Origin: an uncultured Anaerolineales bacterium
Lineage (GTDB): Bacteria > Chloroflexota > Anaerolineae > B4-G1
Direction of reading: 5' to 3'
NCBI GenBank assembly: GCA_964643875.1
Contig: CAZXVB010000069.1
Coordinates: 1-10,098 of the forward strand
DNA length: 10,098 bases
Position numbers and translations under genes: made by a program. Positions 1 to 10,098 of the stretch are shown here, piece by piece. Within the stretch, counting starts at the first letter, position 1. Every line of letters begins with the position of its first letter. The notes under the pieces are model-generated. The model was not told where the DNA came from. It saw only the letters and a program-made list of their open reading frames with translations, and did no database searches.

Positions 1-12
1 ATCAACTTTGAG

Positions 13-30
13 TTCAACCTGCGGGAGGGT
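13..30. repeat. Second copy of the CCTGCGGGAGGGT 13-mer (18-mer ttcaaCCTGCGGGAGGGT with 16/18 identity to 5384..5401) at the window edge, embedded in short palindromes
   Basis: 18..30 is identical to 5389..5401. The flanks are TGAGTT(9..14)...AACTCA(35..40) and CAACT-c-AGTTG (34..44). Any inverted partner (CCTCCCGCAGG) would lie left of position 1 and cannot be seen. A 13-mer repeat alone is near chance expectation in 10 kb. The significance comes from the hairpin context. Confidence 0.3.
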
Positions 31-86
31 CTCCAACTCAGTTGAAACACACCCAAGTCAAATGGGTTCGCTCTTTGGCTCTTTGG

Positions 87-749
87 TTAGAGCATGGCGG
101 TCAGTATCACGGCCGAGATGGCCGGAACCGTCAGATTGTCTATTCCCCAAGGGGATATGGCTTCGATGAGTGTTGCTCCCAGGGCCGTCACGGCAGCACT
201 CCATACTATGGAACTCCATGGCAGGGGGAGGGGTGACAGAAGAAGCAGGGGAATCAGCGTGGCGATCCAACTGCTGATGAACATCACGCCCGATCCTTCC
301 TGGGAGCGGGTATAGCCTAGAAGGACGTAACGCCTCTGCCCGAACCGTTGCCCAACGACGGCTGCCAGGGCGTCTCCCCAGGTCATAGGCATCAGACTGG
401 CAACCAGCAGATGGGGAGAGTCCCACAGCAACCAGACGATGATGGCAAACGAGATGGGAAAGTAAATGGTGCCCAGTTGGCCCTTCTGGCCGGTTTCCAT
501 AGCCTGGAACGTTCCCCGCCAATAGGAGAATACATTGATGGCGATAAAGGCAATGGGAGGAATGACGGCCCAGGTGCGATGTGCAAACAATAGTACCGTG
601 CCGTAACTCCACATGCCAACGGCAATGTGGATGAACTTCCGAGTGAACTCGACTGAGTAACTGCGCCATCGCCGCATTCCCTCGGCCAAGCCAATCATTG
701 CAAAAACGTAGACGAAGGAAACGATGAGTGCGAAAACATCCCTTGACAT
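87..749 (-). CDS. Polytopic membrane protein, CTP-dependent polyprenol/phytol/dolichol-kinase-like (CDP-diglyceride synthetase superfamily) (220 aa)
   Basis: Intact ORF starting at ATG 749, with a GAGGGA Shine-Dalgarno about 9 nt upstream on the minus strand. There are about 6 hydrophobic helices. Motifs 'TRKFIHIAVG' and 'GDALAAVVGQRFG' resemble the K-x-x-H...G / GD..A..vG..fG signature of the SEC59/VTE5/CdsA-like CTP-transferase family. An overlapping 203-aa ORF in another frame (58..669) is Arg/His-rich with no features. Confidence 0.55.
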   Translation of the reverse strand: MSRDVFALIVSFVYVFAMIGLAEGMRRWRSYSVEFTRKFIHIAVGMWSYGTVLLFAHRTWAVIPPIAFIAINVFSYWRGTFQAMETGQKGQLGTIYFPISFAIIVWLLWDSPHLLVASLMPMTWGDALAAVVGQRFGQRRYVLLGYTRSQEGSGVMFISSWIATLIPLLLLSPLPLPWSSIVWSAAVTALGATLIEAISPWGIDNLTVPAISAVILTAML

Positions 750-801
750 TTATCTCTATCCCTCAGCTTAAATCCACGTTTGATCCATACTCGATCCACG
801 T

Positions 802-1794
802 TCAATTACCCTTCAATAATGCAGTGATATATCCCACAAGCACATCATCGTCGATCTCAGCACCGCCAAGTATTGTTGCGTTTGCTCCTATGAAGACCAC
901 CTCACCCGCTTCGTCGAAATTGAATTTTCCAAAGACCGGCCCGTCGGCGGTTTCCAGAATGGCGTAACCCTCTTGTGTTATGTCTGACTGCCGTTTGACC
1001 AGGGCATAATCGCCTTCGTTTGCCCCCAGGCTTTCCTGTACTTCTGGAGGGACTTCTATCACGTAGTACTCACCGTCCGGCTCCAGATAAACCCGTTGGG
1101 TGCCTTTCAAGCGCCGGGTCTGTAGGATGTGCTCTCCAACGCGCAATTGGAGCCGGCTCTCGCGTTCCAGGACGAAGCGGTCCACTTCTACCTCGGCAAG
1201 GGCGAATCCCCCTTTCGCTTTCCACAGGACGACGGGGATACAGATGCGTGTGGTCGGACTGACTCCGATGCGGGCGCCGGTGCGCGTTAGGTATTCCTGC
1301 AATGTCTCCACCCATTGCCGGATTCGAACACAGGTCTCGATGTGATTGGTGGCGTTGACAGTCGCCCATTCTCGGATCACTTGCTCGCACTGCCGATCGG
1401 CCTCCTCGTACCATTGAAGCGCGTCTATCTCGTTCCCCAGGGATTGCGAAACGAGTCCCAGGGCATAGATGACCACGGCCTCGTTGTGACGCTGACAACG
1501 GGACGTTTTTTGCCGTAAGAGACGGTACGCCCGCTGATAGCTGGACAGGGCCGGGCCCAGTTTGCCTACATTGTGGTGAATATCGGCCAGGTGGACCAGC
1601 GCAAGGGCAAGGCCGATCCAGTGACCAGGCTCTTGGGTTTTGGTGACTACAGCCTGCGCGCTCTGGATCGCCTCGGACAAGCGCCCTTGTCGGCGCAGAC
1701 GGCGAACGCGACTTAATAGCTCGTCTATGAAGGATGGTAGTTCCTCCCGACAGAGCAACTCAGACGGTGTCAACTCTTGTGGTAAACGGATCAT
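802..1794 (-). CDS. Soluble hypothetical protein: N-terminal TPR-like helical repeats plus C-terminal beta-strand-rich small-barrel domain (LexA/S24-like or NfeD-OB-like) (330 aa)
   Basis: Its start codon (1792..1794) overlaps the stop of the upstream SPFH gene by 4 nt (ATGA), which suggests translational coupling. There is no TM segment. The central region has paired amphipathic helices ('GLALALVHLADIHHNVGKLGPALSSYQRAYRLL', 'ALGLVSQSLGNEIDALQWYEEADRQ'). The C-terminal 130 aa ('IPVVLWKAKGG...LRVGEHIL...GDYALVKRQSDITQEGYAILETADGPVFGKF...DDVLVGYITALLK') follows the strand pattern of LexA/S24 C-terminal domains, but the GDSM serine position reads 'GEHI'. Confidence 0.55.
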   Translation of the reverse strand: MIRLPQELTPSELLCREELPSFIDELLSRVRRLRRQGRLSEAIQSAQAVVTKTQEPGHWIGLALALVHLADIHHNVGKLGPALSSYQRAYRLLRQKTSRCQRHNEAVVIYALGLVSQSLGNEIDALQWYEEADRQCEQVIREWATVNATNHIETCVRIRQWVETLQEYLTRTGARIGVSPTTRICIPVVLWKAKGGFALAEVEVDRFVLERESRLQLRVGEHILQTRRLKGTQRVYLEPDGEYYVIEVPPEVQESLGANEGDYALVKRQSDITQEGYAILETADGPVFGKFNFDEAGEVVFIGANATILGGAEIDDDVLVGYITALLKGN

Positions 1795-3326
1795 ACCCCG
1801 CTTCCTGTGTCCAACATGCGAATAGACTTGTAGAGGTCGCTGAGTGTTGCCTCTGTTCCTTCGCTTGTTTCAGATGGCGTTTTGCTTACTTCGGCTGTCT
1901 GTCCCAGCACGTTTTTCTCCAGCGCCTCGAGGGTGCGCAACGCCTCCGGGGGGAGGAAGGTCTGACTGAATGGATCGTACGCCATCCAGTGCAGAGCCTG
2001 GAACAAGCGCAGGGCGATTAGGTGAGAGGAGACTTCGCTCTGGGTGGATACGAATGGACGAATTGCTTCCGTCAGGGTCAGCACCATCTCGGCTTGCGCC
2101 TGGAATTGGGCGGTCTGGAGACTGGACAATACTTCCGCTTCCCCTTCCGCCAGGGTTTCGATACTCCGTTGCTCCCAATCGGCGTTCCAGGCTTCGATCC
2201 ATTGGGTCGAGATGCGTTTGTCTTTCACGTTTATCTTCCCCAAAGCGATGTTGAGCAATTTGGCCCCGATCTTGTTATCCACCGTCAAGGTGTTCTCCAA
2301 CTTGCTTCGCAACTGTTCTAGAATCTCCTGGCGGGGCGGCTTCTGGTCGGGTTGTGGGGGCTGAAGCAGCCAATCCAGTCGGTAGCGGGCCAGAATGTTC
2401 CGCAAAGCGCCTTCTACTTCGCTGATCATTACCCGCCCGGTCCAGTGGCGAAGCTGCTCCTGGTGATCAGGCTGTTTGATGCGTACCCAAATGGCCGTCG
2501 CGGCATTGAATACGGCCTGATCAGTGTAGGGCAGCGGTGTGGAGATACCTCCCTTTTCTATCTCCTCGGCAATGACGCGATCCAGCGCCTCCGGGAACGT
2601 CTTGCTCCTCAAAAAGTCATCTGGGATTTCGACCGGCGATACTTCCTGGACCTGACCATCTGCACCGACTACCCGATCATCGATTTTGAAAGTAACATCC
2701 ACTTCACAGGAAATCGGGATACCCTCCTTAGTCATCGCGTGGTCGGTGAACAGCCAGCGTTGTGGACGTAGGTCTATCACTTCCCAGATACGTTCATACG
2801 GTTCCAGGAAGCCTACGGATGGCCCCAGGACGCGGGTGAGCCGACCGGCCCGTTCCAACACGACGGCGCTGTCGTTATAGACAATGATGAACCCCGGCCC
2901 TCCCACCCGGTCGAAGAAACTGCCGCTTCCCACGGCGATCTTTCCTTCACGTACGATAATGATTGGCTTGAGCCTGCTCATTCCGAAGACCAGCCGCTGG
3001 AGGAAAGAGCGGGCTTCTCCCATATCCCTGGTATCGTATAGCCCTCGAATGAAGCGCGGCGCCAGCCATAGGAAAATGGCCGCCAAGGCGAGGAAGGCCG
3101 GCAATGAATTGTAGATTGCCCCGGGGAGCAGGGAGATCAGGCGCTGTACCCACCATTGCGTCTGAACGAAGAGAACGCCTTGCGGTGGAGTCTCCGGTAT
3201 AGCAGGGACGGCATCCGTCGGATGGCTGTGAGCTTCCGCGATGAAAGCAAGAGCCAAGATCAGGAGAAGTAAGATTAGCAATATAATCAGGCGATTCGAA
3301 TTCTGAGCTTGGAGTTTCCAGCGCAT
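1791..3326 (-). CDS. Membrane-anchored SPFH/band-7 (stomatin/prohibitin/flotillin/HflKC)-like protein, paralog 2 (511 aa)
   Basis: ATG at 3326 with AGGAG 8 nt upstream. The N-terminus has a hydrophobic leader/TM ('LIILLILLLLILALAFIA') and a second TM. The core 'GRLTRVLGPSVGFLEPYERIWEVIDLRPQRWLFTDHAMTKEGIPISCEVDVTFKIDD' matches the SPFH pattern (G.f..v.PG..f..P...v..vd.r.q......TKD...v.vd.vv.y.I.d). There is a long C-terminal helical/coiled region. It is paralogous to 3354..5015 (shared 'AMTK[DE]GI' and 'IEAW..EW' segments). Confidence 0.6.
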   Translation of the reverse strand: MRWKLQAQNSNRLIILLILLLLILALAFIAEAHSHPTDAVPAIPETPPQGVLFVQTQWWVQRLISLLPGAIYNSLPAFLALAAIFLWLAPRFIRGLYDTRDMGEARSFLQRLVFGMSRLKPIIIVREGKIAVGSGSFFDRVGGPGFIIVYNDSAVVLERAGRLTRVLGPSVGFLEPYERIWEVIDLRPQRWLFTDHAMTKEGIPISCEVDVTFKIDDRVVGADGQVQEVSPVEIPDDFLRSKTFPEALDRVIAEEIEKGGISTPLPYTDQAVFNAATAIWVRIKQPDHQEQLRHWTGRVMISEVEGALRNILARYRLDWLLQPPQPDQKPPRQEILEQLRSKLENTLTVDNKIGAKLLNIALGKINVKDKRISTQWIEAWNADWEQRSIETLAEGEAEVLSSLQTAQFQAQAEMVLTLTEAIRPFVSTQSEVSSHLIALRLFQALHWMAYDPFSQTFLPPEALRTLEALEKNVLGQTAEVSKTPSETSEGTEATLSDLYKSIRMLDTGSGV

Positions 3327-3353
3327 TGTTTATGCTCCTATCTTCAAACCGGT

Positions 3354-5015
3354 TCATGCCGGATTGCTGGTTTTTCGTTGGGCGTCCCGAACGACGCGTC
3401 TCGTATCTTTAGGTAAGTAGCGCTGCACCATCGGGCGGATGGCCATTTGGTTGATAAGGTCCAGGAATTGGGCCACAATCCGGTCAAACGTGGGAGCTTC
3501 TCCGCTGCGGCGCAATTCAGCGATCCGTTTCCCGATTTCCAGGATCACATCGGTCTGCGCCTGTGCACGTGCCCATTCGACGCGTTGTATACGAGTGTGA
3601 TGGCCTGCGGCCCGCTTGCGCATTATCTGGCGCACCCATTCAGTTTGCCAGGCCTCAATACGTTTTTGTAGTACCTGCTCATTGACTGGTTCAATGTTAC
3701 CAATCCCTCCACCAATCCGCTGAATTCCCCATCCAGGCAGGACTTTGTCCAACTCATCCCGGAACTCTTTGGCTATCCGCGCGCGAGGGTCGTCGCCAGG
3801 GTTATCGAACAGCTCGAAGGGGGCATACAGATCGTCGAAGTTGTACCGGGAGATGATCTCTTGCAGAATGCGCTCCCCGGCCAACTGTGGTAGGTCATAC
3901 CACTTGAGGGCCTCCAGTTGGTCAGGTTCCTGAGAAGGGTTCTTGTGGTCTATCACCTGGGCCTGGAACGCCCGGAAGACATCACTAGCCCGGTAGGGAT
4001 ACCCCCGTCCCAGCGCTGGGCGTTGCCCGCCGGCCCCCATCTGGAATGGGATGAAGGCGAAGAACTTGACTTCAATGCCGTCCTTGGTCATCGCTGTGAC
4101 GGGGAAAGCCCGTAGTTGCACCCGCAGATCAATCGCCTGAGTAGGGGTATCGGACATGCCGGTAAACACCACCCCCGGTCCTTTGGGGCCTTTGAACCGC
4201 AGCCCCGAAGAGATGGCAACAGCGTGATCGCATCCGGTAAGCACTAGGCCCGGCCCTGACAGGAATGCACCGTATGTGTCGCCTGCTGCCCGTTTGACCA
4301 GCCGTTCTTCGCCGGTCAGCCAGGTCCGGTTGTCCTCGGTGCGGGCCATAATCTTTTCATCTACAACGACATAGTAGGGATAGTTGGTGCCCAACGTATA
4401 TGTGATCAGGCAACGCAAAGCTTTGCGGCGGTGCTCGATCCATTCCTGACGGATGGCCTTGTTCTGTCGGAAACGGAACATCGCCAGGAAATCCAAAATC
4501 TGGTCTTTCAACATCGGCACTCCGCCCGGTTGGGGAGCGGAGCGCTTACCCCGATAAAGGGCATCCTGTGGTGGAGAGGGAATCAAAAAACCGGCCACAA
4601 AGAGAAGCCCCCCTCCGGCGATCAGGAGCGCTGGCACGGTAATGGTCAACACCCCCAACCAGCCGGAGCGCCATCCGACGCACCCGGCGAACCAGAAGTA
4701 GACCCAGGGGACGTAGAGGGACCAGGCCTTGATGCGTTTGTTGTTCGGTTCCATTGAGGGCAACAGAATCATCAACAGTAGGCCGGCTATTAGATTGGTG
4801 AAGAACCCCAGGGTTGGACCGCCAGCGATTATGCCCGACAGAGCCACTACAAGATAGAGCGTCATCCCTATCAGGCTACTGATGAGCCAAAATCCACATG
4901 TGATGGTGATGTCCAGGCGATTAAAAGTGGCGAGTTTGAGAAACAGGCCAATAGCTACCGTGCCGCCAATCGTCAACGTGGTCAAAAGCATCAAGTCATT
5001 GAGTAGGTCTGGCAT
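3354..5015 (-). CDS. Polytopic membrane SPFH/band-7-like protein, paralog 1 (about 553 aa)
   Basis: The ORF track starts at 5021 (MNMPDLLN), but the AAGGAG Shine-Dalgarno lies only 1 nt from that ATG and 7 nt from the second ATG (5013..5015), so the MPDLLN start is preferred. About 6 N-terminal TM helices are followed by the SPFH-like core 'GPGLVLTGCDHAVAISSGLRFKGPKGPGVVFTGMSDTPTQAIDLRVQLRAFPVTAMTKDGIEVKFFAFIPF' and a C-terminal helical region resembling that of the paralog. Confidence 0.6.
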   Translation of the reverse strand: MPDLLNDLMLLTTLTIGGTVAIGLFLKLATFNRLDITITCGFWLISSLIGMTLYLVVALSGIIAGGPTLGFFTNLIAGLLLMILLPSMEPNNKRIKAWSLYVPWVYFWFAGCVGWRSGWLGVLTITVPALLIAGGGLLFVAGFLIPSPPQDALYRGKRSAPQPGGVPMLKDQILDFLAMFRFRQNKAIRQEWIEHRRKALRCLITYTLGTNYPYYVVVDEKIMARTEDNRTWLTGEERLVKRAAGDTYGAFLSGPGLVLTGCDHAVAISSGLRFKGPKGPGVVFTGMSDTPTQAIDLRVQLRAFPVTAMTKDGIEVKFFAFIPFQMGAGGQRPALGRGYPYRASDVFRAFQAQVIDHKNPSQEPDQLEALKWYDLPQLAGERILQEIISRYNFDDLYAPFELFDNPGDDPRARIAKEFRDELDKVLPGWGIQRIGGGIGNIEPVNEQVLQKRIEAWQTEWVRQIMRKRAAGHHTRIQRVEWARAQAQTDVILEIGKRIAELRRSGEAPTFDRIVAQFLDLINQMAIRPMVQRYLPKDTRRVVRDAQRKTSNPA

Positions 5016-5209
5016 ATTCATACTCCTTGGCAGATGGGCAAATGATCTGGGAGAAAGATAATTGCTCTCATTTGCGGTTGTTCCTTAATTGCCGGTACAG
5101 GCTCTTCTTTCACTCGTGCACTCGCTGGGCAATCGTGGTAGCAACTATACTGGTTTTTCCTCAACAGAGATCGTGTTTCGGCTATGCGGGGACACAAACG
5201 CACTGGCTT

Positions 5210-5237
5210 GATTATATGTCAGAATAGTCTGAAAGCA
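5210..5237 (-). promoter_or_regulatory. Candidate sigma70-like promoter for the minus-strand SPFH operon (-35 TTGCTT 5237..5232, 16-nt spacer, -10 TATAAT 5215..5210)
   Basis: The minus strand reads '...ggattTTGCTTtcagactattctgacaTATAATcaagcc'. The -10 is a perfect consensus and the -35 matches 3/6. A start near 5203 would give a leader of about 190 nt to the SPFH start at 5015. Confidence 0.3.
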
Positions 5238-5359
5238 AAATCCAGTTATACCGCCTTGTACAGCATCGAGGCTCGCCATCTGGAATCGGGATACTGGCCG
5301 TATGATGATATTATACTGATTCTCATGTTTGAGACAAACTCTCATTACCCGACATTTTG

Positions 5360-5401
5360 ACCCTCCCGTAGGTTCGGATGCGGTTAACCCTGCGGGAGGG
5401 T
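5360..5401. repeat. 13-bp stem (one G-U wobble) with a 16-nt loop in the leader of the first NTPase gene; the right arm is a repeated 13-mer
   Basis: ACCCTCCCGTAGG (5360..5372), loop ttcggatgcggttaac, CCTGCGGGAGGGT (5389..5401). The arms are reverse complements with one position that pairs only as U-G in RNA. Flanking bases extend the stem by 2-3 weak pairs. No T-tract follows, so it is not a canonical terminator. It lies about 80 nt upstream of ATG 5484. Confidence 0.45.
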
Positions 5402-5483
5402 TAGCGAAAGACAAACTTGCCGTTGTCATTGTTCTATGGTATTCTTGTGCCAGCGGTGTGACAAAGTGATAGGGGAACCACAG

Positions 5484-7007
5484 ATGAGCAGCTACGGCCA
5501 CAGTTTTAGCCGCCGCTTGAACCGGTGGTTGGAAAAATTCGGCTTGATCGCCGATCCGTTTGCATTCTATGAGGCCGATCGGGAACGTTCGGACCTACCA
5601 TATTTCTTTGTGGATCGCCCATATCTGCATGACATGATCGGCGTTCCCGACCACCCCCAATCCGCCTTTCTCCTGGCCGGTCGAGGGGAAGGGAAGACAG
5701 CCACCCGGGAAATGGTGGCCTATGAGTGTTCGTATGCCAGTTTGCGTCGTCGCGCTCTCCCGGTGCGCTACTATGACTTTACCTCTTTGCTGGAACAAAC
5801 GGGTGGGGATCTCAGCCAGGTAACTATTGGTCATCATGTACGACTCCTCGCCCGACAGATTCTCAAAGCTATGATCGCAGAGATACCGGCGACGTATTTC
5901 GATCTCCTTGATGATTTGGAGCGGGGCATATTGATGGGATACATAGCAGAGTTCGGAGATCCGATTTCCCGATTGAAGTGGGAACGCATCCTGGCTACCG
6001 CTCCGTTGGCGTTGGAATGGGAAAAGCTTTCGCCGTCTGAAACGTTACAGACTCTGTCCAACCTGGTAGTCAAGTTGGGCCGCTCCCCAGACGCCACCTA
6101 CCAGGCGCTGTATGTACTGGTGGATCGGGTGGATGAGACTGCCGCTGGGCCAGATGCGGCCGTAGCACTGTTACGTCCTCTGGTCGCGGATCGTTTGCTC
6201 CTGGAAACTGAACACGTGGCCTTCAAATTCTTCATTCCTGAAGAGGTAGGCCATAGTCTGGAGCAGGTTGTCGATCTGCGCCCCGACCGTGTATGTATCC
6301 GCCGGATTTCCTGGGATGCGGAAGCGCTGCGGGCAATGGTAGAGCAACGCATATTCTATTATAGCGAAGGCCGTACCGCGCGGTTGGAGGAGATGTGCAC
6401 GTCAGGGGTCAAATCTATGGCGATGGAGCGGATGATCCGTGCTTGTAAAGGCTCCCCCCGTCACTTGTTGCGCTTGTGTCAGGCATTGATCCATCACCAT
6501 GTCCGCCATGCCAATGAGACCAACGCATTGATCACCCATGCGGATCTGGTTGATACTTTGCGGGAGTTCGAATATCGAACAGAGGTGGAGCATACGCCAA
6601 CAAAGCGGAGCGAGACCGTGCCCACTGTGGACAAGGGGCCAATCACCGAATCTACTATGTCTCCGTCAAAGCCGCCAGAACGAGGGTTGTACATAGATGC
6701 CGGTGGGCATGTCTGGGTGGACGGGCATCCTCTGACACCGCCGCTTCCCGATCTGGAGTTCCGGCTGCTGAATATCTTGTACCAGCGTGCGCCTGAGATT
6801 GTCCCCCATTCTGCCCTGATCGAGGCCATCTGGCCCACCGCCACCTGGATGTCTTCCGACCATCCTGGTGCTTACAAGTCTGATGAGCAGAACCTCCGCA
6901 AATTGATCGGTCGCTTGCGAGAGCGATTGGACCCTGACTCTCCTGGCCGAAAGTCGCGATTTGTGAAGAACGTGCGCGGGCGGGGATACTGGCTCTGCAA
7001 GGACTGA
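5484..7007 (+). CDS. P-loop NTPase (STAND-like N-terminal signature) fused to C-terminal OmpR/PhoB-type winged-helix DNA-binding domain (507 aa)
   Basis: ATG at 5484 preceded by AGGGGAA (7 nt spacer). The longer ORF from ATG 5436 has no Shine-Dalgarno. Walker A 'LLAGRGEGKTA' (about 5673..5702) is preceded by 'FFVDR' about 25 aa upstream. A Walker-B-like 'LYVLVDRVDE' lies at about 6108..6140. The C-terminus, 'LPDLEFRLLNILYQRAPEIVPHSALIEAIWPT...DEQNLRKLIGRLRERLDPD...SRFVKNVRGRGYWL' (about 6683..7004), matches the trans_reg_C consensus (LT..EfrLL..L.....v..r..L...vW....drtvdv.I.rLRkKl.......I.tvrGvGYrl). Confidence 0.75.
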   Translation: MSSYGHSFSRRLNRWLEKFGLIADPFAFYEADRERSDLPYFFVDRPYLHDMIGVPDHPQSAFLLAGRGEGKTATREMVAYECSYASLRRRALPVRYYDFTSLLEQTGGDLSQVTIGHHVRLLARQILKAMIAEIPATYFDLLDDLERGILMGYIAEFGDPISRLKWERILATAPLALEWEKLSPSETLQTLSNLVVKLGRSPDATYQALYVLVDRVDETAAGPDAAVALLRPLVADRLLLETEHVAFKFFIPEEVGHSLEQVVDLRPDRVCIRRISWDAEALRAMVEQRIFYYSEGRTARLEEMCTSGVKSMAMERMIRACKGSPRHLLRLCQALIHHHVRHANETNALITHADLVDTLREFEYRTEVEHTPTKRSETVPTVDKGPITESTMSPSKPPERGLYIDAGGHVWVDGHPLTPPLPDLEFRLLNILYQRAPEIVPHSALIEAIWPTATWMSSDHPGAYKSDEQNLRKLIGRLRERLDPDSPGRKSRFVKNVRGRGYWLCKD

Positions 7008-7055
7008 TTCGCCTCGTACGTTACACGCAGGGCGATTTCTGTCACACTCCAGACC

Positions 7056-7087
7056 GGGGCGTCATTTTTCTGTCCCCATGACGTCCC
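7056..7087 (+). other. Hairpin GGGGCGTCAT / loop ttttctgtcccc / ATGACGTCCC, 49 nt downstream of the first NTPase stop
   Basis: 10-bp stem with one mismatch and a perfect CGTCAT...ATGACG core. No U-tract follows ('acacaggtc'). It could be a factor-dependent terminator or protein-binding palindrome, or it could be chance. Confidence 0.2.
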
Positions 7088-7097
7088 ACACAGGTCA

Positions 7098-7126
7098 TTG
7101 ATTCCCTGGCAAGATTAGGATATGAT
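7098..7126 (+). promoter_or_regulatory. Near-consensus sigma70-type promoter: -35 TTGATT (7098..7103), 17-nt spacer, -10 TATGAT (7121..7126)
   Basis: Read directly from the sequence: 'cattgattccctggcaagattaggatatgatgacac'. It lies in the 243-nt gap between the first and second NTPase genes, about 125 nt upstream of ATG 7251, which implies NTPase genes 2-4 can be transcribed independently of gene 1. Confidence 0.4.
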
Positions 7127-7137
7127 GACACTATCCT
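7117..7137. promoter_or_regulatory. Operator-like palindrome AGGATA-N9-TATCCT overlapping the -10 element
   Basis: AGGATA (7117..7122), tgatgacac, TATCCT (7132..7137) form a perfect 6-bp inverted repeat with a 9-bp spacer spanning the -10 hexamer and the predicted start. TAGGATAG occurs again at 7237..7244, in the Shine-Dalgarno region. Confidence 0.3.
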
Positions 7138-7155
7138 CGTATAGTCTGCGATGGG

Positions 7156-7215
7156 CAGACGCCAGGTGACCGTTGCCAGACGATGGGGCGGTGAGAGACG
7201 GTCGCCTGACGTCTG
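7156..7215 (+). promoter_or_regulatory. Long imperfect palindrome / leader stem-loop (17-bp arms, 26-nt loop) followed by a T-rich tract, upstream of the second NTPase start
   Basis: CAGACGCCAGGTGACCG (7156..7172) pairs with CGGTCGCCTGACGTCTG (7199..7215): 15 Watson-Crick pairs, 1 G-U and 1 C-A mismatch. It is followed by 'TTGGTTT'. It lies between the candidate promoter (7098..7126) and ATG 7251 and spans the alternative TTG (7173). It could be an attenuator, terminator or regulator binding site. Confidence 0.3.
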
Positions 7216-7250
7216 TTGGTTTACGAGAAGAGGTTCGTAGGATAGCAAAA

Positions 7251-8756
7251 ATGGAGCCAATCGGTCGAGTCATGCGGCACGGATTGCCGAATCAACGCTA
7301 TCTGGATTTCGTTGGACGGTATCTACTTCACCGACCACCGGGTACACCATCGGTGGATCCATTCCAGCCTCAGTTGTCGGTGGAACAAATCGAAGGAGCA
7401 TATGTGGACCGGACGGCTGTCGAAAAAGAAGCCTGTCGGTTGGATACGCAGATCGTAATGGGCCGGCAGGGAAGTGGAAAGACAACCCTGGCGATCCGCT
7501 TGTCCACGCTGCTTCGACAGGGCGTGTTGGTAGTACCGGTTCCTATCGAACTGGCCGAGGTCTACGCTCGACTCGACTCAATCTCCGAGGGTTCAACGCC
7601 GCTGTCCCCCGGCCCTTTGGCAACACTCATATTCGACGCCTACTGGGAAAATCTGTTGTACAATCCGGCGCATCGAGGTCGTTTTTTACCCCGATTGCGC
7701 CAGGATCGGTTGTGGATGGTACGGCTGCGTTGGTTTTATCACCACTTGCCTCCCCGGCATCTTGAAATCCCAGAAGAGTTCGAGTTGATGACATGGCTGA
7801 GAGCCAGTCCATCCAATGAAATCTATGGGGCAGCGATGCGACCGGAGGATATGTTGAGGGAACTGATTCGATTCGTGACCTCGGCAGACCTATCCTTGGC
7901 CTCAGCATGGACACAGGCGTATCGCGCTCGCGCTCCTTACGAACACATTCAAGTGCTTCTGGATGGCGTGGAACATTGCTCGGAGGCCGGGCTGGAGCGT
8001 TTGGGTCGGGATGTGACCTGGCTCCATCGTTTATCTCTGGAAACAGGGCGTATTTCATTCAAACTATTTGCCGGTGACTATTTGCGTGAGGCCTTCGAGA
8101 GGATACGCTGTGTTCAATCCGGGCAAGTAACTCTATACGCGCTTCCTCTATGGAGCGAAGATGACCTCCGACGGTTATTGTACCGCCGTCTGGCGATGTG
8201 GATGCCGGGGGAGAGTATCGCGCCGACGGATTTCTCGGATCGTCGGGAACGGATGACTGAACTTCGGAAGGCTCTGTCCCATTTCCTGGATGAAGAAGGG
8301 GTAAAAACCCTCTGTCGCGATCTGGGAATAGATTATCAAGATTTACCGGCTCAAGGGAAAACGAACAAACTTCGAGAACTGATCGCTCAAATGGAGCGAC
8401 GGGATCGCCTCTCCGAATTATTTGCGATTTCCAGTCGGATCTGCCCCCAATTGGAGTCCCGGTGGCCCATCCCTTCAGAAGGGAAAGAGGGTATGAAGTG
8501 GGAGTCCAATTGGGGAATGCGTATTCCCGACTGCTATTTGACGTCGTTGGCTCGGAAGCATCTGGTCAGAGAGATCGTCGCGGGCGCCCTGCGGGTCTAC
8601 AAGCAAGAGGATGCCTGGGATGCGCCCATACACTTGCTGAAGTTAGCCCGTGGTCTCCTGGCTGCTTCCGTGGGATGTTGGAAAGAACAAGGATTTTGCC
8701 CCCCGCTCAATATCGATCAAATAGCCGCTTTGATCGATTCGTACTGGGCCACATAA
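7251..8756 (+). CDS. P-loop NTPase (STAND-like), paralog of 5484..7007, with internal EAD-like helical adaptor segment (501 aa)
   Basis: ATG at 7251 with AGGAT 7 nt upstream. The ORF track begins at an in-frame TTG at 7173 with no Shine-Dalgarno. Walker A 'VMGRQGSGKTTLA' (about 7455..7493) is preceded by 'YVDRTAVEKE'. Both this protein and 5484..7007 share the N-terminal layout DPF-x13/15-[FY]VDR-x16/20-GRxGxGKT. A Walker-B-like 'IQVLLDGVEH' is present. The segment 'VKTLCRDLGIDYQDLPAQGKTNKLRELIAQMERRDRLSELF' (8265..8430) is read by memory as an effector-associated-domain-like helical module. Confidence 0.7.
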   Translation: MEPIGRVMRHGLPNQRYLDFVGRYLLHRPPGTPSVDPFQPQLSVEQIEGAYVDRTAVEKEACRLDTQIVMGRQGSGKTTLAIRLSTLLRQGVLVVPVPIELAEVYARLDSISEGSTPLSPGPLATLIFDAYWENLLYNPAHRGRFLPRLRQDRLWMVRLRWFYHHLPPRHLEIPEEFELMTWLRASPSNEIYGAAMRPEDMLRELIRFVTSADLSLASAWTQAYRARAPYEHIQVLLDGVEHCSEAGLERLGRDVTWLHRLSLETGRISFKLFAGDYLREAFERIRCVQSGQVTLYALPLWSEDDLRRLLYRRLAMWMPGESIAPTDFSDRRERMTELRKALSHFLDEEGVKTLCRDLGIDYQDLPAQGKTNKLRELIAQMERRDRLSELFAISSRICPQLESRWPIPSEGKEGMKWESNWGMRIPDCYLTSLARKHLVREIVAGALRVYKQEDAWDAPIHLLKLARGLLAASVGCWKEQGFCPPLNIDQIAALIDSYWAT

Positions 8757-8788
8757 GTTGATTTTCGAGGGGAAGAAAGGAGAGGAAT

Positions 8789-10006
8789 ATGGTCAGTTTC
8801 CAAGATCGCAAGGAGTCACTGAAACAGATATGTGATCCTGCCAATAGAGGTTTCCTGTTGAACATTTATGGGGAGGCCGGCATTGGTAAATCCCGCTTGA
8901 TGATGGAAGCCAGAGAGCGATTACGGAAAAATTCTCCGCCGACGTTGGTGTTCTACGTGGACCTGAAGCCTGTATCACAGCGAGCGCCAATGGAACGTCC
9001 CGCCGTGTTACTTCAAGAGCTGTTGAGTCGCGCGGAAGGCCGTCTGAGGGTGGAAGGGCAGGGAGTCGAGTATGATGCGGGGCAAATCATTGCTCAGTTG
9101 ACCGCACTGTCCAATCAAAATCCTGTGACGTTGATGTTCGATACCACGGAAACGTTGCAGGAGGATATGGAGTTCTGGAAGTGGTTGGAAACCAATCTAA
9201 TTGGGCCTCTGGTCGTCGAAGGGAGCGTACAATTGATATTTGCCGGCCGGATTCCCGTTCCCTGGCGGCGGGTGGAAGTGCGGCGGGCGGTCAAGCTGCT
9301 CCTTCTTCAGCCCCTTCACCCTCAAGAAGCAGCTCGCGAACTGGCCCGCGAGGTGTTACGCCAACACAATGCACACTGGAACGAAGCCGTGTTGGAACAA
9401 GCGATTTCTTTGGTATTAGAATTTTCGTTTGCACATCCATTATTGTCCGAAAAGTTGGCGGAATTCATTGCGCAAGAGTGGCAGCCACCGCCTGGCTACA
9501 ATACTGGTTCTGGCCGTTCCAATTCCGATAGCCTTGATTTCGGCAGTGAGTTCCGAGGAAAGTTGTGTAAAGAGGTGGTGGAGCCATTTGTCGAACAGCA
9601 CCTTTTGGAAACAGTAGAACCAACCTGGAAGAAGATCCTGTGGTGGGTCAGCGTGCTGGATTGGTTCGATGCTACAATTTTGCAACGTTATCTGCGGCTA
9701 GTGGCCCCGAACATGAGCACTGACAAGCCCGATTATTTTTTCGTGCAGGGTCTGACACGTTTGCGCATCCATCACACCGTTGTTTGGCGAGAGGAGAGGG
9801 GAGACCGAATGCATGGCGTGATTGGGGACATCATGCGACATTGCCTCCAGGTACAGAAGCCGGAGGTCTATCGTCAGGCATGTCTGAAAGCGGCCGAGAT
9901 GTTCGATGAGCTGGCCGGGGAGTTCGAGGATGACCCAGAGGCAGATCGGTATCGTCAACAGGCTGAGAAATACCGCCGACGTGCGGCACAGGAGGTAGAG
10001 GTATGA
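8789..10006 (+). CDS. STAND-type P-loop NTPase (405 aa)
   Basis: Strong Shine-Dalgarno GAAAGGAGAGG 6 nt before ATG 8789, 32 nt after the stop of the upstream gene. 'FQDRKESLKQI' is followed by 'FLLNIYGEAGIGKSRLMMEA' (Walker A, about 8870..8893), and Walker B 'VTLMFDTTE' lies about 85 aa later (about 9124..9150). The C-terminal 250 aa are helical with no recognisable effector or repeat sensor domain. Confidence 0.75.
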   Translation: MVSFQDRKESLKQICDPANRGFLLNIYGEAGIGKSRLMMEARERLRKNSPPTLVFYVDLKPVSQRAPMERPAVLLQELLSRAEGRLRVEGQGVEYDAGQIIAQLTALSNQNPVTLMFDTTETLQEDMEFWKWLETNLIGPLVVEGSVQLIFAGRIPVPWRRVEVRRAVKLLLLQPLHPQEAARELAREVLRQHNAHWNEAVLEQAISLVLEFSFAHPLLSEKLAEFIAQEWQPPPGYNTGSGRSNSDSLDFGSEFRGKLCKEVVEPFVEQHLLETVEPTWKKILWWVSVLDWFDATILQRYLRLVAPNMSTDKPDYFFVQGLTRLRIHHTVVWREERGDRMHGVIGDIMRHCLQVQKPEVYRQACLKAAEMFDELAGEFEDDPEADRYRQQAEKYRRRAAQEVEV

Positions 10007-10098
10007 GCGAGAGAGATTTGACTGAACGCACTCCCAAAATGGTTGGACGACAGGAAGAAACGGTCCGCTTGAGAAAGCACCTGTATGCCCGTGGCGAA
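10003..10098 (+). CDS. 5' fragment of a fourth P-loop/STAND-like gene, truncated by the window end (MSERDLTERTPKMVGRQEETVRLRKHLYARGE...)
   Basis: ATG 10003 overlaps the TGA of the upstream gene (ATGA), which suggests translational coupling. 'MVGRQEETVRLRKHL' is the classic 'hhGRExEl..L' element that precedes the Walker A in STAND NTPases. Only 32 codons are visible, so the call rests on the motif and the operon context. Confidence 0.45.
   Translation, partial: MSERDLTERTPKMVGRQEETVRLRKHLYARGE

Follow-up and report, generated by a model that had tools for sequence, protein, structure and literature searches.

The cages built by SPFH proteins (HflK/C, stomatin, flotillin, prohibitin) are structurally well described, while their opening, closing and signalling are poorly understood. 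To our knowledge, all SPFH proteins studied so far form rings, and the only well-known bacterial partners of the cages are FtsH and NfeD. Here we describe a gene unit, A-B-C, built around a pair of SPFH paralogues in a contig of 10,098 nucleotides from an uncultured Anaerolineales bacterium (Chloroflexota; Anaerolineae; B4-G1; assembly GCA_964643875.1, contig CAZXVB010000069.1, positions 1 to 10,098), the whole of which is referred to below as the window. Genes A and B encode the two SPFH proteins, and gene C a soluble protein in which TPR repeats are joined to an apparently inactive LexA-like domain; three NTPase genes (N1, N2 and N3) are transcribed away from A. The reading that we favour, and hold with moderate confidence, is that A and B form a cytoplasm-facing scaffold with C as its TPR/pseudo-LexA adaptor, wired in some lineages to EAD7/STAND signalling. 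All of the evidence is computational, and the loci come from uncultured lineages.

Comparison with described systems

The HflK/HflC pair, which works with FtsH in Proteobacteria, resembles this locus in consisting of two tandem, co-translated SPFH paralogues for which a mixed ring is expected, and its chains are the best structural matches of our model of B (7vhq, E=1.2e-9, then 9cz2 and 7wi3). HflK and HflC, however, have one N-terminal helix each and face the periplasm, whereas A and B have four to five and two helices, respectively, and are predicted to face the cytoplasm, and the third partner here is a TPR/pseudo-LexA protein. No FtsH family was found in Pfam scans of the neighbouring genes, with a partner elsewhere in the genome being possible.

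Stomatin-NfeD operons (QmcA-YbbJ; Pyrococcus PH1511-PH1510) likewise join a cytoplasm-facing SPFH protein to an adjoining partner with a small beta domain of a protease family, and QmcA (8z5g) and stomatin are among the structural matches of the B model. Long NfeD proteins cleave archaeal stomatin, and because the protease-type domain is probably active in relatives, regulated cleavage may plausibly occur at the SPFH C-terminus in the stomatin-NfeD operons as well as in the present unit. The two differ in that NfeD sits in the membrane and has an OB fold, to which a ClpP-type protease may or may not be joined, whereas C is soluble and combines TPR repeats with an S24 (LexA) fold whose catalytic residues are lost; there are also two SPFH paralogues here rather than one. 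No window gene matched the NfeD family in Pfam, and neither A nor B matched any NCBIfam family at E<=1, the HflK/HflC models included. A sequence-only reading of this DNA had already judged the pair to be neither the usual HflK/HflC nor the usual stomatin/NfeD arrangement, and these searches agree.

A third comparison is with NTPase conflict systems, in which EADs act as homotypic coupling adaptors with one copy on the core NTPase and the other on the effector (Kaur et al., 2020; PMC7159879). The same paper places EAD7 among the EADs that recruit effectors, and lists Band7-like domains as scaffolds in such systems. The present families share with them EAD7 domains on NTPases (N2 of the window, where the EAD is fused to a core NTPase, and an NB-ARC protein at locus L012) and on B or C elsewhere; their hosts are filamentous Chloroflexota, and the conflict systems are those of multicellular bacteria. 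They differ in that the Band7 examples of PMC7159879 are fusions within the vWA components of vWA-MoxR systems, while the unit described here is a conserved chromosomal module mostly without an NTPase neighbour. The main text of PMC7159879 holds no S24 or LexA term and no operon of two SPFH genes with a TPR/LexA-like gene, and in full-text literature searches neither this unit nor an association of SPFH with S24 was found described. A coupling of SPFH proteins to NTPases, which had been thought undescribed, is therefore new as regards this unit, but not as a principle, Band7 scaffolds having already been listed. The unit is best called a combination of known kinds: an SPFH scaffold with a protease-family partner, and EAD-coupled NTPase systems.

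A conserved three-gene unit

The three genes and their domains lie in the window as follows.

3354..5021, minus strand: gene A, a 555-residue polytopic SPFH/Band_7 paralogue (open reading frame, Pfam Band_7, homology to B)
4581..5000, minus strand: membrane anchor of A, residues 8-147 (hydropathy and lysine/arginine counts)
3372..4262, minus strand: SPFH core and C-terminal helical region of A, residues 254-550 (BLASTP alignment to B residues 141-472)
1791..3326, minus strand: gene B, a 511-residue SPFH/Band_7 paralogue with a two-helix membrane hairpin (open reading frame, Pfam, AlphaFold2 model, Foldseek)
3048..3290, minus strand: membrane hairpin of B, residues 13-93 (hydropathy, lysine/arginine counts, model helices 2-34 and 48-97)
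2046..2966, minus strand: SPFH alpha/beta domain of B, residues 121-367, with a low-confidence insertion at about residues 225-295, and long helix, residues 370-427 (model, Foldseek)
802..1794, minus strand: gene C, a 330-residue soluble TPR plus pseudo-LexA (S24-like) protein (open reading frame, TPR_12 match)
1279..1734, minus strand: TPR-like helical domain of C, residues 21-172 (model)
808..1248, minus strand: LexA/S24-like beta domain of C, residues 183-329 (profile, hidden Markov model and fold matches)

The stop codon of B and the start codon of C overlap in GTATGA (ATGA), while 27 nt separate A from B, whose start is preceded by the Shine-Dalgarno-like AGGAG. The overlap and the solubility of C, which lacks any hydrophobic segment by hydropathy, bear out what had been proposed from the sequence; of the limits then given for the region, 802-5015, the first is correct, and A ends at 5021, not 5015.

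An exact-peptide-pattern scan with one genome per species yielded 48 loci, and gene order was counted by mapping the window proteins onto all open reading frames of the loci. All of them lie in Chloroflexota metagenome-assembled genomes (Anaerolineae/Anaerolineales, Thermoflexia/Thermoflexales or plain Chloroflexota), except for a short contig, L051, labelled Hyphomicrobiaceae. The order A, B, C on one strand was found in 39 of the 40 loci with enough flanking sequence, often with overlapping stops and starts, and an A-type orthologue stands ahead of B in all informative loci. The pairing persists even in variant loci, where A is followed by a B carrying EAD7 (L085) or the order is A, B, A and a B-STAND fusion (L086). 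The A-B-C unit is thus a stable chromosomal module of Anaerolineae and Thermoflexia.

Two remote SPFH paralogues

A and B align with 23% identity across 339 residues (BLASTP, E=2e-15), and the motif by which they had been recognised as adjacent paralogues with an SPFH core, AMTK[DE]GI, is present in both (TAMTKDGIEV in A, HAMTKEGIPI in B). Both also score above the Pfam gathering score of 23.6 for Band_7 (PF01145), A with 31 bits and B with 41 bits, the matches being partial: profile positions 5-73 in B, and positions 97-165 in A, where they fall on residues 384-461. Both the paralogy and the SPFH assignment made from the sequence are therefore upheld, and A and B are an ancient SPFH paralogue pair.

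The AlphaFold2 model of B, built with 22 homologues, has a mean pLDDT (predicted local distance difference test score) of 72, i.e. medium confidence. It shows two long N-terminal helices (residues 2-34 and 48-97), strands at residues 122-228 and 355-367, and a helix at residues 370-427, so that the SPFH alpha/beta domain followed by a long helix, as in cage-forming members, is present in the model. Foldseek matched it with probability 1.0 to HflK/C, stomatin, prohibitin, erlin, QmcA, flotillin and the major vault protein, the alignments to SPFH cage subunits extending over 320-370 columns.

At the level of sequence the family stands apart. Flotillin family models in Pfam and NCBIfam matched neither A nor B, and flotillin structures rank below HflK/C and stomatin; searching the sequences of the PDB with a B-family profile gave only a marginal stomatin match (E=0.25). 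The same profile found 2030 proteins at E<=1e-3 among 1.84 billion representatives, of which 248 reached E<=1e-30. Judged by these searches, the B family is a small, distinct SPFH clade, remote in sequence from the known SPFH families.

Predicted orientation in the membrane

Hydropathy analysis of A revealed four strong hydrophobic segments and a weaker aromatic one (residues 101-121), giving four to five transmembrane helices rather than the roughly six first supposed; the two helices proposed for B stand, and two segments were likewise found in 47 of 49 B homologues. The lysine and arginine distribution of A favours five helices, with the N-terminus outside and the C-terminus inside; in this arrangement 11 such residues are predicted inside against one outside. 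The counts for B are three in the N-terminal tail, one in the loop and eight past the second helix. From these distributions the positive-inside rule predicts that the SPFH domains of A and B are cytoplasmic, an orientation that fits a partner, C, without a hydrophobic segment.

One B relative, P0325 (688 residues), is fused to four Invasin_D3/Big_1 immunoglobulin-like domains; this fusion would suggest an extracytoplasmic orientation in its branch, in conflict with the topology predicted here.

Gene C: TPR repeats and a LexA-like domain

C matches TPR_12 of Pfam with 37 bits, and its structure model (mean pLDDT 82) consists of a TPR-like helical half and a beta domain, so both the TPR profile and the helical-repeat fold are present. 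The description of C reached from the sequence, as a TPR/beta-barrel protein, is upheld as regards TPR repeats and a beta domain; it had left the LexA/S24-like nature of the latter unrecognised. Several lines of evidence point to that nature. A C homologue with 32% identity, P0178, exceeds the Pfam Peptidase_S24 cut-off (25.8 vs 23.3 bits), and three of 17 isolated C-terminal domains of C homologues match S24. A hidden Markov model of the S24 domains fused to B-like SPFH proteins (see below) matches C of the window itself at residues 211-271 (E=1.2e-4), and in a Foldseek search with the C model Thermotoga LexA (3k2z_A, probability 0.99) was the only match in the top 50 that was not a TPR protein. 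The beta domain of C and the SPFH-fused domains align strand by strand with the catalytic domain of LexA. The relationship is seen only with a multi-sequence alignment and a family-specific model: C of the window has no Pfam S24 match at E<=1, and no significant result was obtained when the C-terminal alignment was compared by hhalign with one LexA sequence alone.

In the joint alignment, Ser119 of LexA corresponds to Val in the window's C and to Ala or Gly in its homologues, the position of Lys156 varies, and no Ser or Lys of the beta domain is invariant across 34 homologues. The region of the cleavage loop is variable as well, with pLDDT below 50 at residues 204-212. Unlike the self-cleaving S24 proteins LexA, UmuD and cI, C thus lacks both nucleophile and general base, and it has a TPR domain in place of the DNA-binding domain. 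Because the equivalents of Ser119 and Lys156 are lost and no Ser or Lys is invariant, the domain is, as judged from alignment and model, a LexA/S24 fold that is catalytically dead.

Three other assignments of the beta domain were set aside. An NfeD-like OB barrel was the first guess and was rejected as the domain is S24/LexA-like; a hexapeptide-repeat match (19-21 bits, below the cut-off) occurred in one of 17 homologues and was taken as chance; and the match to a designed double-psi barrel (7dvh, E=0.09) was confined to a short motif around GDY-V.

About one-fifth of the C homologues carry an extra helical motif in their C-terminal 45-80 residues, after a linker rich in Pro and Ser (P0138, P0145, P0162, P0168, P0171, P0176). 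The motif, LYxxLxxxVxGDKxxAxRLIEYERxxxPxASxxELxExAIxRLxxDR, belongs to no Pfam family and may be another adaptor module.

Fusions of S24, EAD7 and STAND domains to the unit's proteins

Fusions were counted among the top representatives of the B family, about 150 in number. Eleven of them carry a C-terminal S24 domain which, as in LexA, keeps the serine of VSGDSM and the lysine of TLKR together with an (I)AAG(K/E/R)E motif resembling the LexA cleavage site; by these residues the SPFH-fused S24 domains are intact and probably self-cleaving. EAD7 was found in seven, in N-terminal, internal or C-terminal position, and a STAND NTPase is fused to one (P0243).

EAD7 also occurs within the unit itself. 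In the four protein clusters of the L037/L080 clade (64-100% identity), C carries an N-terminal EAD7, the A-B-C unit being ordinary in all other respects and flanked by housekeeping genes. The order in L085:1394-9086 is A, EAD7-B, a divergent C (hhalign probability 95%), an EAD7-pentapeptide-repeat protein, PfkB and D (the gene that follows C in the window), so that two EAD7 copies stand in one operon, the published EAD pairing pattern, within conserved synteny. L086:185-9445 has four tandem SPFH genes (A, B, A, B-STAND) followed by a protein combining AAA_22 with a calcineurin-like phosphoesterase, and has the appearance of a complete conflict-type system with this SPFH family as its basis.

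The neighbouring NTPase array

The array that faces A in the window comprises the following features.

5022..5483, no strand: divergent spacer between A and N1 (open reading frame limits)
5484..7007, plus strand, reading frame opening at 5436: N1, a Sll1717-family P-loop ATPase with a C-terminal OmpR-type winged helix (NCBIfam, Pfam)
7251..8756, plus strand, reading frame opening at 7173, likely start Met27: N2, a P-loop NTPase (Walker A GRQGSGKTT)
8262..8429, plus strand: EAD7 adaptor domain in N2, residues 364-419 (Pfam EAD7)
8789..10006, plus strand: N3, a STAND-like P-loop NTPase (sub-threshold Pfam matches; third gene of a conserved array)

N1 scores 80 bits with ATPase_Sll1717 of NCBIfam (cut-off 75) and 41 bits with Trans_reg_C of Pfam. 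It also matches NCBIfam DS41_1_antiphage at profile positions 200-378 with 183 bits, under the cut-off of 370, which makes it a distant relative of a protein that NCBI names anti-phage; literature searches returned no paper on Sll1717 or DS-41. The alignment of N2 orthologues begins at Met27. All matches of N2 and N3 to NACHT/NB-ARC/AAA_16-type families of Pfam are under the gathering scores (for N3 they include AAA_16, ATPase_2, AAA_22 and NACHT), and N3 has a weak PADLOC match to mad8 (E=0.015). A metagenome scan from N1 showed that N1-N2-N3 is a conserved cassette in itself. The EAD7 domain of N2 is well above its Pfam cut-off (55 vs 32 bits) and lies within a lineage-specific insertion of 96 residues; the alignment to the L005 orthologue skips residues 348-443, and no EAD7 was found in other N2 orthologues.

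Seen from the unit, four of the 26 loci with at least 5 kb of upstream flank have NTPase genes upstream of A and divergent from it. Three of these (L005, L031, L047) have relatives of the N array, with one or two other genes between N1 and A, and the fourth (L012) has an unrelated 969-residue EAD7+NB-ARC protein, 581 bp upstream of A. Seen from the array, the unit is adjacent in five of about nine informative lineages (the window, L005/L070, L013/L073, L031/L079 and L047/L078). Adjacency is therefore facultative by the counts from both sides, frequent for the array and rare for the unit. The SPFH pair does neighbour NTPase genes in other genomes, yet as a minority state, and the coupling of unit and array put forward in the sequence-only reading is weakened to that extent; it is strengthened by the fusions and by EAD7 on B and C elsewhere. 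The NTPase link is real but facultative, and three independent kinds of association (fusions, EAD7 on B or C, and neighbouring NTPases) recur in the same protein families.

In eight loci a gene for a protein of 350-500 residues without a Pfam match, U1, lies immediately upstream of A on the same strand (L002:7153-8286, L005:6979-8193, L031:6832-8355, L047:8294-9343 and four more). In L005, L031 and L047 its place is between the N array and A. The window lacks U1, which may represent a fourth, optional component.

A proposed mechanism and the alternatives to it

We propose, by analogy with the behaviour of the SPFH family, that A and B co-assemble at the cytoplasmic side of the membrane into a mixed hetero-oligomeric ring or cage, which the four to five helices of A and the two-helix hairpin of B would anchor. 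C would serve as a dedicated cytoplasmic adaptor, its TPR half free for partners and its dead LexA-like domain docking on A/B as the likeliest contact, either as a cap or as a reader that recognises, without cleaving it, a tail which active versions would cut; this role is suggested by the intact S24 domains that close B relatives carry at the SPFH C-terminus. Wiring to conflict-type NTPase switches could then take three forms, namely EAD7 on C or B, STAND fused to B, and NTPases divergent beside A. The window would represent the last, with an N2 that has acquired an EAD7 insertion, and a signal may flow between NTPases and scaffold.

The family adds a third type of SPFH partner, a LexA-like domain that is intact when fused and dead on the separate TPR adaptor. 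It is also tied genetically, in repeated and independent instances, to EAD7 adaptors and STAND NTPases, which in bacteria correspond to the NLR-type immune switches. Should this tie prove functional, multicellular filamentous bacteria would provide a concrete, testable example of a membrane scaffold acted on by an NTPase switch; should it not, the assembly of paralogous SPFH proteins with an adaptor can still be studied in this clean and conserved system of three proteins.

Several observations weigh against wiring of the scaffold to NTPases. No NTPase lies within 5-10 kb of about 80% of the units, which stand between housekeeping genes in conserved synteny; the recurring flanks include a GT2 glycosyltransferase, a PALP enzyme, a 1450-residue S8 peptidase, UvrC, AlaX, a PfkB kinase, PrmC and Sua5. 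Such flanks give the unit the look of a core cellular module and not of a defence island, and PADLOC 2.0 found no match for A or B and only a generic TPR match for C. In four informative lineages (L059/L077, L063/L066/L067, L064 and L074) the N array occurs without the unit, its upstream neighbours being CorA, PheS/PheT, a P-type ATPase or a histidine kinase. The divergence of N1 runs parallel to that of B, so part of the adjacency in related Anaerolineae may be inherited synteny. In a search of all open reading frames of the 80 loci no EAD7 was found in A, B or C of the window, nor was there a second copy of EAD7 in the window or in the 20-kb twin contig of the same organism (L001), and the pairing that defines EADs is accordingly lacking in the window.

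These observations are what one would expect if the unit were a housekeeping membrane scaffold, serving microdomains or membrane-protein quality control in the manner of HflK/C or stomatin, with the adjacency of NTPases an accident of synteny or island insertion. The rarity of upstream NTPases and the varied company of the unit-free arrays suit this explanation, as does the conserved operator-like repeat of the spacer, which belongs to N1's own promoter some 425 bp from A (see below). It does not readily account for B relatives fused to a STAND NTPase and to EAD7, for EAD7 on C and on B within otherwise ordinary units, for the divergent placement next to A of two unrelated NTPase architectures (the N array; the EAD7-NB-ARC protein of L012), or for the unit adjoining the array in about half of the informative N-array lineages. 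We therefore regard it as unlikely overall, and retain it because most units have no nearby NTPase and the window has no second EAD7 copy.

The scaffold with its adaptor C and facultative NTPase wiring remains the reading that we favour. It can be carried further: multicellular Chloroflexota might possess an immune or programmed-cell-death pathway whose output device at the membrane is the A/B scaffold, with STAND/EAD7 NTPases that sense a signal and are recruited via EAD7 or the TPR adaptor, and with a LexA-type domain, self-cleaving in the fused relatives and reading without cleavage in C, that gates the cage. We offer this as speculation and consider it distinctly doubtful. Were it true, it would mean a new control of an SPFH cage and a new class of effector for NLR-like proteins.

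The spacer between A and N1

The spacer measures 414 bp to the first ATG of the N1 reading frame (5436) and 462 bp to the ATG at 5484, in agreement with the shared region of about 460 bp described before. The start at 5484 is the likelier one because of a GGGGA Shine-Dalgarno-like sequence and of an in-frame stop upstream of the called N1 start in the aligned locus L073. Two features of the spacer stand out.

5310..5337, minus strand: sigma-70-like promoter match towards A, TTGTCT-16-TATAAT, 10/12 (consensus match only)
5446..5463, plus strand: tandem TGTGCCA-N4-TGTGACA, period 11 bp, immediately ahead of the N1 start (candidate operator for the N1 winged helix)

A promoter consensus scan of the spacer found three sites against 0.7 expected. 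The tandem repeat is conserved at the DNA level, as TGTG[AC]CA-N4-TGTGACA, before N1 orthologues (L058:185-202, L071:1390-1407, L072:1140-1157, L073:9964-9981); it probably serves the N1 winged helix as operator, and also speaks for 5484 over 5436 as the start of N1. It lies about 425 bp from A and downstream of N1's likely -10 element, and an alignment of the spacer with that of L073 showed no conservation except next to N1. Related motifs, GACAAA(C/G)T, occur at 5333, 5410 and 5460.

N1 might on this evidence be the transcription factor of the divergent A-B-C(-D) operon, ATPase-gated and binding the shared spacer, so that the link between array and unit would be regulatory and not physical. 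Its OmpR-type DNA-binding domain and its position divergent from A are in keeping with such a role, as are the tandem TGTGNCA repeats and a GACAAA(C/G)T motif that overlaps the -35 hexamer of the A-facing promoter-like site. The latter, however, is a single short match, and the place of the conserved repeat, before the N1 start and after the likely -10, suggests autoregulation. The remainder of the spacer is not conserved with L073, one or two genes separate N1 from A in L005, L031 and L047, and most units have no N1 at all. We consider regulation of the unit by N1 improbable, and the co-regulation through the shared spacer that had been proposed from the gene arrangement is not borne out; the sole conserved operator-like repeat sits at the promoter of N1 itself.

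The last alternative, that C is an active LexA-like protease cutting the C-terminal tails of A or B, has in its favour the homology of the beta domain to S24 peptidases and the intact S24 domains on B relatives, but the loss of the Ser119 and Lys156 equivalents, the want of an invariant Ser or Lys and the missing Pfam S24 match of the window's C make it very improbable indeed.

The spacer also contains a 13-nt inverted repeat, ACCCTCCCGTAGG at 5360-5372 and CCTGCGGGAGGGT at 5389-5401, with 92% complementarity and a 16-nt loop; it is not conserved in L073 and has no Rfam match.

Gene D and other neighbouring features

Downstream of C lies one further gene.

87..749, minus strand: gene D, a 220-residue polytopic membrane protein (open reading frame)

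The gap between C and D is 52 nt, with the Shine-Dalgarno-like GAGGG upstream of the D start, and D is probably co-transcribed with A-B-C. Of 42 loci, 12 have D as the next gene after C and 18 have it within 10 kb, and its membership of the unit is uncertain. D matched no Pfam, NCBIfam or PADLOC family, and is far better conserved than A, B and C (phmmer E of about 1e-100 in species whose B shares only 40-55% identity). Its motifs (RKFIH, GDALAAVVGQRFG, SQEGS, DNLTVP) presumably recall those of CTP-dependent polyprenol or phytol kinases.

An Rfam scan of the window matched no family. The proportion of guanine and cytosine is even across the window (0.48-0.59), with minima at the C-D junction (501-1000) and in the A-N1 spacer (5001-5500). 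On the twin contig, beyond the left end of the window, D is directly followed by genes for SSB, a DUF3467 protein, a translin-like protein and a Cas4/PDDEXK nuclease (L001:7053-10083), which could be the remnant of a mobile element.

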